Shown here: positions 13,250 through 63,785 of the stretch, in pieces
Layout of the letters: the number at the start of each line of letters is the position of its first letter
How positions within the stretch are numbered: position 1 is the first letter of the stretch
Translations under genes and position numbers: made by a program
From: Eledone cirrhosa
Lineage: Eukaryota
Direction of reading: 5' to 3'
Length of the DNA stretch: 64,000 bases
NCBI GenBank assembly: GCA_964016885.1
Contig: OZ024754.1
Coordinates: 15,438,001-15,502,000, forward strand
The notes under the pieces: generated by a model
Seen by the model: the letters and a program-made list of their open reading frames with translations, nothing else
Told to the model about the DNA's origin: nothing
Databases searched by the model: none

Positions 13250-14600
13250 TGTACGGTCAACTCAGACAACTCCACCTGGCATTACATTGGATCCACCGCG
13301 GGTACTTTTAAAAAAAGATGGTATGTGCACAGGCACTCGATGAAAAATCGTGCACTTATGGGTTCTACAACCCTCGCCAAAAAAATATGGGAACTGAAGG
13401 ACAACAACACTAGCTACAGTATCAACTGGTCGAGGTTGTCGGCTGCTAAAACCTACAGTAGAGGTATGTCCCACTGTAGGCTATGTGATCTAGAACTACT
13501 GTATATACTTAAAAATGTAAAAAGGCTACTCAACAACAAGTTAGAAAGATCTATCTTCTGCAGACACAGAATTGCCACTAAATTCATAAGATTTAAACCT
13601 CTATGAATCGAACCGACGTAACATAGCTTTCAACTAGGATACCCACTACTCTGCACGAATCACCACAGAAATATAATCATTAAGTACATTCTAGCCTTCT
13701 TAGTTCTATACCACACTAATGTCTGTAAGTACCTCATCAACCCATAAACTTATCTCTTCTCAGCTGCTGTCATCAATTGATCCTAAATCCAAGAACATTT
13801 CAAAATACTACTACAACGGAACTTTACCTTCCTCTTGTTATAATTATAGTCAGCATGTTTTCTCTTTGTATGTATGTATTTGTATGAGTGTGTGTGTGTA
13901 TGTATGTATATGTTTGTGTGTGTGTGTGTGTGTGTGTGTGTGTGTATATATATGTATATATATATATATATTACCTCCTTAACCTCTGTACTAACTTGCC
14001 CATTATTTAGCTTTGTTAGTGTTGTCTTATACAAGTATGTTATTGAGGATGGAAAAAATAGACAGCACTCTCATCTAATATAGTCCACACAAATTCCACT
14101 ACAGTGATAAATACTTCATCGGTCAGATAAAAACCGACCATTACGGCCACCTGACCTACATTGTTTAAAAACACCAGCTTATCTTTACACTTGATATAAT
14201 ACATCCTACGACAGTCTTTACATGTCAATTTTATACATCTGCCTCATGTCAGCTAGTTTTACACACTAAAATCATAGATATACTATACTTCCCACCTAGA
14301 TTGATATTGTGATTATTTCAAATAATTTATTGCTTGCATTGTTGATATTGTTGTTATTGTTCTAACTGAATGCCATTACTACTACATATAGTAGCCTGTA
14401 TATTCTTTTCATGCCTGTATATTCTCTTCATTCTCGCAAGCTCCGATGAACTGACTGGTTATAATTTTGTATTGGCGATCGAGTAACGCGAAAATAAGCG
14501 GATAGCGATCTCTAGACCTACCAGTTCAGAGAAACAATTGTCAGCAATGAGATTAAAAACCTTTTTTGTATAGCAAACCGTGTCACTCTTCTTTCCTGAT
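13250..14600 (+). mobile_element. 5'-truncated Penelope-like element: GIY-YIG C-terminus plus pLTR with hammerhead
   Basis: ORF 13013..13606 after the (TA)n part: [17 protein letters not shown]...[11 protein letters not shown]...CRLCDLE...LNNKLE...CRH; hammerhead motif at 14440; bounded by (TA)n at both ends. Confidence 0.85.
14440..14545 (+). ncRNA. Variant type I hammerhead ribozyme (CCGAUGA core, long stem II)
   Basis: GCT-CCGATGA-a-CTGACTGG...CCAGTTCAG-a-GAAA-CAATTG-TC-AGC; stem I GCT/AGC; palindromic stem III ACAATTGT; GUC cleavage triplet. Confidence 0.65.
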
Positions 14601-15039
14601 TTATATATATATATATATTTATATATATATATTTATATATATATATATAAATAGAATTCACAAGAATCAAAGCTATGTTCAAAGCATTTATTCACTTACA
14701 ATTGTTTCATCCAAACCTAGGGTTGGAGTCTTCGGAGCATTTTTCAATGTTTGTACACATAATTGACCTCCTTTCCAACGCAAGAGACATACAGATACAT
14801 ATATATATATTGATGTACAGTGGAGTGACATATATTATACTATACTATTTTTGTACAGCAATTCAAATTCAATATACATAACCATAAATAGTATCCCTAA
14901 TATTATATATATATATATATATATATATATTGTATAATTTTTTTGGGGGGGATCGATCGACTTTCGTCAAATCGGACCGAGGAAACAATGTTTCCGTTGG
15001 TCTTTCCAGTTGCTAGTACTATCTATCGGTCGCAACTCC

Positions 15040-15165
15040 AGGTAGAAGGAGCAACGTGAAATAAAGTGTCTTGCTCAAGGACATAACGCATCGCCAGGTC
15101 CAGGAATCGAACTCACAACCTCAAGATTTTGAATCCAATTCTCTAACCACTCAGCCACACGCCTT
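15040..15165 (-). mobile_element. tRNA-derived SINE fragment
   Basis: Reverse strand reads GGCGTGTGGCTGAGTGGTTAGAG...GTGAGTTCGATTCCTGG...GTCCTTGAGCAAGACACTTTATTTCACG (A/B boxes plus conserved body). Confidence 0.65.
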
Positions 15166-15589
15166 CATATATACATACACGCCTATATATACATACACGC
15201 CTATATATACATACACACACACACATATACATATATATATGTATATACATACAAAGTGTTAAAACGATCATAGGCACCACATACACGCATGCACACACAT
15301 ATACGTCAGCGTATGGAAAACATTCTAGTCATTAAAAAGACAGGATGGTCACGGCAATGATGTTTTTTGTCTGCAAGAATACTTTGATCCTGCGTTAGGC
15401 AACATGAAACTAGTATTGCGACAACTATGGTAAGAAGTGATAATTCTAAGAGTCTGCTAGTTATATGTATCATGTAAGTATACACATCATCAATGTACAG
15501 GTTATACGTAACTAAAACCATATGTATCTGAAATAGAACATAACCAAAGCCAAGCCAATAACGAATCCAAGAAAAGGTAAACCATAATC

Positions 15590-16048
15590 ATACTATCAAC
15601 CCTACCCCCAAACCGTACCGCATCAGCCATATATTAAATTCAAACATATTCTTCAAAGCCATACTCTAACCCTAACCCTAACCCAAACCGTACCGCATCA
15701 GCCATATATTAAATTCAAATATATTCTTCAAAGCCATACTCTAACCCTAACCCTAACCCAAACCGTACCGCATCAGCCATATATTAAATTCAAATATATT
15801 CTTCAAAGCCATACTCTAACCCTAACCCTAACCCAAACCGTACCGCATCAGCCATATATTAAATTCAAATATATTCTTCAAAGCCATACTCTAACCCTAA
15901 CCCTAACCCAAACCGTACCGCATCAGCCATATATTAAATTCAAATATATTCTTCAAAGCCATACTCTAACCCTAACCCTAACCCAAACCGTACCGCATCA
16001 GCCATATATTAAATTCAAATATATTCTTCAAAGCCATACTCTAACCCT
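15590..16048. repeat. 75-bp minisatellite (~6 copies) carrying (TAACCC)3
   Basis: Unit CTCTAACCCTAACCCTAACCCAAACCGTACCGCATCAGCCATATATTAAATTCAAATATATTCTTCAAAGCCATA; period 15664 to 15739. Confidence 0.92.
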
Positions 16049-16493
16049 TTCAGCCAAACAACAGCGACACCGCTCTAATTACTAGTATGGCGGTATATAT
16101 ATATTATCATAATCTTTTTAATTTTCACAGAAAACGATGGCAGTTTCGACTGTATTAGGCTTTTCAGACTGCAGTTACTACATTGATATTATCAGTTTAT
16201 GTTTGATTCTGACATATATGGTATGGCAGTATAGTCCCGTAACTTCTGGTGGGGTCGTATTATCATACGGTGTTTCTGGGGCATGTTTAAGCCTGGCAGA
16301 GCACACCCCTCTCCAGTACATTCTAACTGTGCTTTCAATCTTTTAAAATTATCAACACTTGTATTACCTGGTGTGTCCTTTCACTGTTTGGGATAGCATG
16401 TGGAGATGTAACTGCTACTTTAAGTAGATCAAGCAAGCATGTAGTATAGGGATGGGGAACCTCCTGACCACATTCATATTTGAAACCACCCAC

Positions 16494-16790
16494 AGACGTG
16501 GCCTCGTGATAAGGGTGTTGTACTTACAATCATAATGTCGTATGTTCGAGTCCTGGGCTGGCTTGTGTGTTGTGTTCTTGAGCAAAACACTTCATTTCAC
16601 GTTGCTCAAGTATACTCAGCTGAAAATGAGTACCATCAATAGCTGGTGGGGGGGGGGGGGCTGCGATAGGTTGACATCCTGTCAAGGCAAATGGGTGGGG
16701 TCCTGTATTCTCAGTCGCTTCACGTCACGGAAACCAGGATAAGCACCGGCCTCAGGAGTCTCTGGACTCAAGACAGACTTCAGACTTTTA
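16494..16790 (+). mobile_element. tRNA-derived SINE
   Basis: GTGGCCTCGTGATAAGG (A-box-like), GTTCGAGTCC (B box), then GTGTTGTGTTCTTGAGCAAAACACTTCATTTCACG body also seen at 15040-15165 and 38920-39068. Confidence 0.65.
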
Positions 16791-62383: not shown

Positions 62384-62635
62384 ACGAGGGTCGGCTGGAA
62401 TGTTCATAGGCTGACCAAGATACTCTCATGGAAAAACCAAATGAGATTTATTTTTCAACATAGTTCCTGGAAAGAAACAATACAGTTAATAATAAGAAGA
62501 GTTTCAATTAATGTACACAAGATTTCACAGCCCTAGCATCAATCCGTCATAGGCTGACCAACATACTCTCATAGAATGACCAAATGAAGCTTATTTTTCA
62601 ACATAGTCCCTGGAAATAAACAATGTAGTTATTAA
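62384..62635 (+). mobile_element. Mariner-like terminal fragment with internal duplication
   Basis: TA-CGAGGGTCGGCTGGAATGTTCATAGGCTGACC..TTTATTTTTCAACATAGT; ~85 bp repeated at 62548-62635. Confidence 0.45.
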
Positions 62636-62639
62636 TAAT

Positions 62640-62976
62640 GGTTTCTCATATAGGCACAAGGCCAACAATTTTGGGGGAAGGGAAAGTCGATTAAATCGAC
62701 CCTAGTGCGTGACTAGTACTTTATTTTATCGACCCCATAAGGATGAAAGGCAAAGTTAACCTCGGCGGGACTTGAACTCAGATCATAAAGGACCGTCACT
62801 CTATGCTGCAAAGCATGGCGTCCGACCCTCTACCGATACTGCCAATTCACCGCCCTTTAATACAGTTATTAATAATTGTTTCTACATTTGGCACAAGGCC
62901 AGCAATTATCCCAGTGTATTACTGGTACTTTATTTTATCGACCCCGTAAGGATGAAAGGCAAAGTTAACCTCGGCA
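62640..62976 (-). mobile_element. Two adjacent SINE copies
   Basis: Reverse copies of the 18503-family. Confidence 0.8.
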
Positions 62977-63340
62977 GTTATTAGTAATAACAGTTGAAAT
63001 GAATGCAAGGAAGAATGCACAGCCCTAGCATCACTCCTTCATAGAGAACCTATGATCTTTTCAGTCCACCATCGTATGTGCAGTGTTTAGTTTTACTCCG
63101 TGTTGTGGTAGGGGCGGGGTATTTTAATACATATACTTTATATGCTGTGCCTTATGTTGCTATTTTATTTTAAGTATGTTTTGCTGATATATTAATCTTC
63201 ATCTCTTTCTACTATTTCCAATTTCTACTATTATGCAAATTGGTTTTGCTTTCAATCCACATCTTCCGGATATCTTTCTTGTTAAATTATTACTGTTTTT
63301 ATTAGTTTTATTCTCTTTAACATATTAGTGTGCACCTTTC

Positions 63341-63446
63341 ATGAATTATTTAGCTGCTATTTCTTGCAAACCATATAAATATAAAGAGTGTCAATAGACT
63401 CTACATGGTCACTTGGTTTACAAGAAATAGCAGCTAAATAATTCAT
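63341..63446. repeat. Short palindromic MITE-like element
   Basis: 33-bp arms ATGAATTATTTAGCTGCTATTTCTTGCAAACCA / TGGTTTACAAGAAATAGCAGCTAAATAATTCAT with one mismatch. Confidence 0.7.
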
Positions 63447-63469
63447 ATATATATTCATATATATATATA

Positions 63470-63785
63470 TCAAGAAAGAAGATTGACATGGTTTGCTATA
63501 CAATAAGGGCTTTATTCACATTGCTGATAATAGTTTCTTTGATCTGACAGGTCTAGAGTTCGCTATACGCCTGATTTTACGCCAATCGATCTCCAATACT
63601 TTGTTTATAACCAGTCTGTTTCATCGGAGCGGGTGAAAATGAAGAAAATATATAAGGCATGGTTTTTATATAAGTGTGGTATTAAACCAGCCACTAAGCC
63701 ACACGTTAATACTATCCACTACAAGAACTACTCCAACTGGACTACATCTAAGTGGACTGCCATAACGATAACCTGTTATCCCGTA
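63470..63785 (-). mobile_element. PLE pLTR fragment related to 14410-14600, with CCGAUGA hammerhead at 63523-63630
   Basis: Reverse complement aligns by eye with 14410-14600 through to the terminal CTTCTTTC..GA-(TA)n; (TA)n on both sides. Confidence 0.75.

Follow-up and report, generated by a model that had tools for sequence, protein, structure and literature searches.

Within the hammerhead ribozyme, G10.1-C11.1, which closes stem II next to the core, is the most conserved helical pair after 15.1-16.1, and the question raised by the locus described here is why so many of its hammerheads do without it. The window is a stretch of 64,000 nucleotides (nt) from Eledone cirrhosa (assembly GCA_964016885.1, 3.0 Gb; contig OZ024754.1, positions 15,438,001 to 15,502,000, forward strand), in which the original prediction placed 14 type I hammerheads of Penelope-like elements (PLEs), most of them lacking the 10.1-11.1 pair, and proposed that the mismatch marks a selected, attenuated or dimer- or protein-dependent subtype. 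We consider it probable that the motifs are type I hammerheads in the 3' repeats of Hydra-clade PLEs and of their likely non-autonomous derivatives, and that pairing at 10.1/11.1 is neither required nor selected against.

All 14 stretches lie where they were predicted, with the stem III words and the 10.1/11.1 letters that had been described (Table 1; motifs and families are named by a window position). The descriptor used for type I hammerheads admitted the cores CUGANGA, UUGANAA and CCGANGA, left 10.1 and 11.1 free, and demanded a stem I of at least 3 base pairs (bp), a stem II with at least two pairs in one of four allowed registers, and a near-palindromic stem III. Thirteen of the 14 pass in this relaxed form, whereas 63523 fails because its stem III has decayed (13 of its 17 parsed relatives, out of 20 fetched, retain the palindrome); three further motifs, namely 14735- (C.U) and 1855- and 58865- (both with a bulge followed by G-C), bring the passing motifs of the window to 16. 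Sixty motifs were found in the 264 kb formed by the window and 200 kb of neighbouring sequence, whereas four block-wise dinucleotide shuffles yielded 0, 0, 0 and 4, and a strict scan of the window gave 10 motifs against a mean of 0.07 in shuffled sequence. The core CUGANGA, GAAA, UH and stems I-III stand in type I order, some families having core variants that the original prediction had passed over (U4C at 14440, 63523 and 14735; U3-A8 at 39692/40473). A U3-A8 core is joined with a C.A mismatch in a hammerhead at L047:899 (+), outside the window. Instead of nine unrelated families, the 14 motifs give eight clusters, since 21534/25793 group together with 42750/42909 and 63523 belongs to a subfamily of 14440; in that subfamily stem II is open over several basal positions, so that the statement that the rest of stem II pairs is false there. 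A shifted register, with an extra base on each side followed by G-C, was rejected for the mismatched motifs of the window, in which the next pair is C-G, U-A or A-U. Many window motifs form inverted pairs, as PLE insertions do, and a (TA)5 run lies 41-241 nt past the cut site at 16 of the 16 passing motifs, TA runs being common genome-wide. With the Rfam hammerhead models, no hammerhead family appeared among 150 listed of the 189 window matches, nor among all 39 matches between 37560 and 43000, a region that includes paired motifs.

Whether the mismatch belongs to families or only to single copies was read from genome-wide pattern searches with both 10.1 and 11.1 free, the states being taken from the first 100 listed places. 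The 36342 family has U.U in all 100 listed of 10,510 matches and the 47167 family A.A in all 100 listed of 850, while U.U occupies 32 of the 34 genome matches of the 21328 family. In the 14440 family all 31 motifs parsed from 30 loci have A.A (from 2,110 first-look candidates), a count biased towards likeness because it was taken among the best-scoring copies. The 14735 family is more varied, with A.G 75, C.A 9, C.U 8, C.C 2, U.U 2, A.A 1 and three paired copies among the first 100 listed of 5,045 matches. Relatives of 60876 carry A.G in 10 of 10 parsed motifs (11 fetched; C4 in 7), so the A.A of the window copy is copy-specific, while the mismatch itself stands. Thus, the mismatch is fixed in five of six families, as expected of a family trait, but not in the 37623 family, where the first 100 listed of 6,199 matches are U-A in 79, C.A in 10, A.A in 10 and A-U in 1, a Watson-Crick majority of the kind that the original prediction had itself named as telling against it. 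The view that mismatches are copy-specific decay of canonical hammerheads is true of single copies, such as the A.A of 60876 among its A.G relatives or the broken stem III of 63523 and 25793, but is refuted by the family counts, and both repeats of one intact element (L131, below) carry a mismatch as well.

The elements that carry these motifs were identified through their open reading frames (ORFs), and five of the eight window families are tied to Hydra-clade Penelope-like ORFs, which bears out the PLE origin that had been proposed. Longer copies of the 14440 family (L095 and L096) encode a reverse transcriptase (RT) and then a GIY-YIG-type endonuclease; the motifs of the L096 ORF match, on comparison by eye, the Hydra-clade rows of Craig et al. 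(2021; PMC8557442). Pfam gave no match for this ORF and left the PLE ORFs unrecognised, their placement being made by motifs and tblastn. In the 14735 family, L131 has an intact Hydra-type ORF of 832 amino acids with RWR, DKT, CxCX5C, CxxC and CxH motifs, flanked by two A.G/U4C hammerheads 4,172 nt apart within a direct repeat identical over 428 nt. The Hydra-clade layout is thus present, namely a single ORF with RT and then C-terminal GIY-YIG domain, an RWK-like motif, DKT, a CxCX5C linker, CxxC and CxH, with no CCHH; a tie to the Naiad 'HHR_core' entries was dropped, since the ORFs have a C-terminal endonuclease. The inverted pairs of the window, the direct repeat of L131 and the (TA)5 runs near cut sites correspond to the pseudo-long terminal repeats and (TA)n targets of Hydra-clade PLEs. 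In the window, remnants of related ORFs are found upstream of the 14440, 21534 and 47167 motifs; elsewhere, Hydra-type remnants precede 21328-family motifs in L102 and L103 and 47167-family motifs in L110 and L130. The 36342 family, by comparison, forms ORF-less tandem arrays with a type I hammerhead in each unit, as non-LTR (long terminal repeat) retrozymes do: five units of 420-422 nt in L097 and three of 430 nt in L098.

Three observations stand beside these. Another retrozyme-like family, a 312-nt tandem array with a U.U hammerhead per unit, lies in L045-L046 (C14:15542001-15562000), and a Hydra-type endonuclease remnant at window 34242-34667 (+) has no passing hammerhead of its own nearby. 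At the inverted 5' junction in L096:4159-4248 and window 14369-14458, the antisense strand of the 14440-family repeat is read through into the RT frame, a probable by-product of 5' truncation and inversion.

Is the open position selected, or simply free? The comparison used a cluster sample of 804 kb, made up of the window, its neighbours and 54 spread 10-kb stretches, with 118 hits in 34 clusters; two clusters of the bulge and G-C type were set aside and 32 compared, two states being assigned by hand. Positions 10.1 and 11.1 are paired in 14 of the 32 (18 are unpaired, and the canonical purine-pyrimidine, R-Y, combination is found in 10), against 13.7 with partners shuffled among clusters, and in 10 of 24 against 10.0 once eight weak singletons are left out. 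Deeper stem II pairs form in 31, 27 and 25 of 32 and in 24 of 30, against 11-14 by chance (10.4-11.4, 25/32 against 11.8; 10.5-11.5, 24/30 against 11.6). Because pairing in the clusters matches the shuffled expectation, 10.1-11.1 behaves as though it were outside the helix, and selection for the mismatch, which the original prediction had proposed, is not supported by this chance-level pairing or by the U-A majority of the 37623 family, which has been amplified in both paired and unpaired states. Avoidance of Y10.1-R11.1 pairs was rejected as well (3 against 4.0 expected, P=0.35, with 7 of 118 hits dropped; 37623 is mostly U-A), and the occurrence of U.U and U-A speaks against one non-canonical geometry shared by all the mismatches.

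Several points weigh against this relaxed reading. The stem II controls are biased upward, since the descriptor demands two pairs and favours long stems; the clusters lack phylogenetic independence, and a few chance hits are among them. In one family 28 of 29 copies have an R-Y pair, of which three kinds occur, so that a lineage-specific constraint is possible. In the other direction, the 36342 family shifts from U.U to C.A (1,182 matches have a non-U at 10.1, with C.A in 77 of the first 100 listed), both letters changing while the position stays unpaired, and only 188 copies with U and a non-U stand beside the 10,510; the 14735 family varies between A.G, C.A and C.U with 97 of its first 100 listed copies unpaired. 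Since such double changes remain unpaired, the chance-level total may hide a mixture of pair-keeping and pair-avoiding lineages. Furthermore, the ORF link of the 60876 family is weak, with remnants at 2 of 11 loci, and the 36342, 37623 and 39692 families could be linked to no ORF, the one in L112 being left unassigned to 36342 because it lies downstream, beyond the (TA)n run.

These double changes in the 36342 and 14735 families also favour an explanation that we regard as possible but unlikely, namely that an open 10.1/11.1, often together with U4C, has been selected in some lineages to damp the ribozyme, cutting then needing a dimer or the element's protein. All four U4C-bearing families seen are mismatched and none of the ten paired families has U4C (p about 0.09 by hand, not significant); U4C reduces activity in vitro (Perreault et al. 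2011; PMC3088659), and a PLE hammerhead needing protein has been published (PMC11167929). However, mismatches are not in excess across families, from a mismatch most single changes yield another mismatch anyway, and the 37623 family has amplified best as U-A. Moreover, U.U is described as the most active mispair (PMC3088659), and the axolotl U.U motif is the faster of two (Cervera and de la Pena 2020; PMC7229834).

Predicted folding gives no separate role to the mismatch either. Single motifs have a stem III of 1-3 bp and a predicted probability of the hammerhead fold of at most 0.06, whereas in the predicted double hammerhead of two copies stem III reaches 4-10 bp, with an advantage of 9-17 kcal/mol for all 11 motifs compared, so that the palindromic stem III does appear suited to dimers. 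The predicted gain is the same for G-C, A-U, G.U and mismatched motifs; it is therefore stem III, and not 10.1/11.1, from which a need for dimers is predicted throughout the set, which counts against damping by the mismatch and separates the need for a dimer from the mismatch to which it had been linked. Under the relaxed reading, each family would inherit and amplify the state of its master copy, be it U.U, C.A, A.A, A.G, G-C, A-U, G.U or U-A; the motif would fold poorly alone, and two copies, as tandem repeats of one transcript, would pair through the stem III palindrome. By analogy with published systems, cleavage of the dimer may then take place at the NUH site, at a slow rate and possibly aided by the element's own protein, and may serve to process multimeric RNA. 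A more specific proposal, which we put forward tentatively and with more doubt than belief, is that a U4C core with a purine mismatch (A.G or A.A) under an A9-G12 pair is nearly silent when naked and active only in an RT-bound dimer, which would make it a protein-gated subtype with thousands of copies in this genome.

In some lineages the motif might no longer be a working ribozyme at all, being kept for protein binding or dimerisation, or carried by trans-mobilised elements. The 63523 subfamily, despite U4C and an open stem II base, has many copies that are 93-96% identical. When the core was freed in the 14735 pattern, damage was found in nine listed rows, five of them at G8 and all five within the C10.1 subfamily (17 listed copies), in which an identical G8 change occurs at two separate loci, twice; in addition, an Anolis PLE inserts in vitro without cleavage, and no reads end at the site (PMC11167929). 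In the same 14735 rows, nevertheless, 91 of 100 listed copies keep all conserved core letters (C4 in 98), while 10.1 differs in 17 and 11.1 in 18 and any core position in at most 5. The U3-A8 compensation in several families and the wide covariation of stems I and II between families also speak for catalysis, and we judge this loss of function improbable.

Compared with published systems, the relaxed pairing considered here largely extends a known feature of Hydra-clade PLEs, the concept of mismatch-tolerant, dimeric PLE hammerheads being no new one. File S2 of PMC8557442 lists the Hydra-clade motifs as canonical, and by our own count its 25 Hydra-clade families have U.U in 14, U.C in 1, G-C in 7, G.U in 2 and a bulge in 1, the base of stem II thus being unpaired in 15 of 25. 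As in those elements, type I motifs with a 3-4-bp palindromic stem III lie near the 3' end before (TA)n and accompany the same RT and endonuclease motifs. Unlike here, the list has no Hydra family with A.A, A.G, C.A, U4C or U3-A8, and stem II regions in Eledone reach 50-116 nt. In a C.A family (L056:6338, L065:4526, L068:1610 and L121:2565), a TA-rich microsatellite lengthens stem II to 100-116 nt. No discussion of the mismatch was found in the main-text passages of PMC8557442 that were examined. Cervera and de la Pena (2014; PMC4209133) stress G10.1-C11.1, but their descriptor has room for an additional N10 and N11, and their Fig. S3 shows the same U.U layout for Hydra magnipapillata. Their PLE min-HHRs share with the present motifs the location in PLE repeats, the palindromic 15.2-16.2 and loop 3, the dimer model, a U3-A8 variant and a presumably low activity, and the 1855/58865 family is their bulge and G-C type; their consensus, in contrast, retains G10.1-C11.1, with stem III nearly absent. 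What would make their descriptor miss most motifs here is the length of stem III, a loop 2 above 10 nt and the core variants, rather than the mismatch. The idea that standard descriptors miss these motifs because of the mismatch is accordingly not supported, as this descriptor admits the extra N10/N11, PMC8557442 lists U.U as canonical and Rfam missed paired motifs too.

The ORF-less tandem units of the 36342 family, a few hundred bases long with a type I hammerhead and U.U, resemble non-LTR retrozymes (PMC7229834), although they are slightly above the published 170-400 nt and end in (TA)n. The axolotl HHR_Amex2, a U.U motif in about 60,000 copies, reaches 22% cleavage in 1 h as a monomer, the dimer cleaving far more (PMC7229834). 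A preprint derives retrozymes from PLEs (Li et al. 2026); U10.1-U11.1 occurs naturally and U4C is found in a viroid (PMC3088659); the PLE hammerhead of Frangieh et al. (2024; PMC11167929) is protein-assisted, its cleavage not being needed in vitro. The short-stem-III hammerheads of Lunse, Weinberg and Breaker (2017), to judge from the title and passages in reviews, are likewise PLE-linked, palindromic and cleaved as dimers. Literature searches, in which most subscription papers lay outside reach, turned up no PLE hammerhead described with A.A, A.G or C.A states or with U4C. New within these searches are the wider set of states (A.A, A.G, C.A), U4C in amplified and intact elements, and the hammerhead load of the genome, estimated at about 300,000 motifs (58 hits in 540 kb, 25 of them mismatched at 10.1/11.1, less 3.9 expected by chance; bootstrap 200,000-410,000). 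This estimate exceeds the 126,247 motifs reported for axolotl (PMC7229834), though the descriptors differ. With some 30 sampled families, nearly every 10.1/11.1 state and U4C in an intact young element, the genome offers a natural mutational panel that bears on what a dimeric, possibly protein-helped hammerhead needs, and on whether PLE hammerheads must cleave at all.

Table 1. Hammerhead motifs and associated coding remnants in the window.
Feature	Positions	Strand	Basis or similarity
Hammerhead, U4C core, A.A (14450/14530), 81-nt stem II region, GUC site, H17 at 14542; 3' end of Hydra-clade PLE	14440..14545	+	
C-terminal endonuclease remnant, 14440-family ORF	13241..13600	+	92% identity to L096 ORF
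Hammerhead 14735-, U4C core, C.U; family mostly A.G	14693..14739	-	descriptor
Hammerhead, U.U, 2-bp stem II, GUU site; partial inverted copy at about 21269-21307	21328..21365	+	
Hammerhead, G.U pair at 10.1-11.1; 3' end of Hydra-type remnant 25161-23845	21534..21600	-	
Broken Hydra-clade RT-endonuclease ORF between 25793+ and 21534- motifs	23845..25161	-	tblastn
Inverted 5' copy of 21534 hammerhead, G.U, stem III mutated	25793..25859	+	97% over 221 nt
Hammerhead, U.U, inverted twin of 36342	35993..36035	-	
Hammerhead, U.U, 6-nt palindromic stem III	36342..36384	+	
Hammerhead, C.A in window copy; family majority U-A paired	37623..37683	+	
Hammerhead, U3-A8 core, G10.1-C11.1; inverted twin of 40473	39692..39779	-	
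Hammerhead, U3-A8 core, G10.1-C11.1; family makes tandems of about 592 nt elsewhere	40473..40560	+	
Hammerhead, A10.1-U11.1 pair	42750..42815	-	
Hammerhead, A-U pair; stem I cut to 3 bp at inversion junction	42909..42964	+	
Hammerhead, A.A	47167..47211	-	
Hydra-clade ORF remnant 2.3 kb upstream of 47167 motif, likely same element	49514..50299	-	
Hammerhead, A.A in window copy; relatives A.G, mostly with U4C	60876..60963	-	
Decayed copy, 14440-related subfamily: U4C, A.A, open stem II base, broken stem III	63523..63630	-	
Hammerhead 1855-, extra base after A9, then G10.1-C11.1 (Cervera type)	1817..1859	-	descriptor
Hammerhead 58865-, second copy of bulge and G-C family	58827..58869	-	

The window also holds several elements of other kinds. 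An LTR retrotransposon occupies 27427-32404 on the minus strand, with 219-nt direct repeats (91% identical) and two overlapping ORFs that contain RT, RNase H and integrase in Gypsy-like order. A zf-BED match and transposase-like ORFs are found at 54735-56558 (+) and 52780-53376 (+), which we take to be hAT-type transposase pieces, and a non-LTR retrotransposon, presumably of the restriction-like endonuclease type, is represented at 57124-58374 (-) by its C-terminal part, which has a Cys-His motif and no Pfam match. A tRNA-like Rfam match at 12950-13013 (-), scoring 30.7 bits against a gathering score of 29, is likely the head of a short interspersed element. Finally, two tandem repeats are present, a 37-nt satellite at 6831-11711 with 132 copies, 91% matches and a strong strand skew, and a 75-nt repeat at 15598-16048 with six copies at 99%, each opened by an AACCCT-like word.

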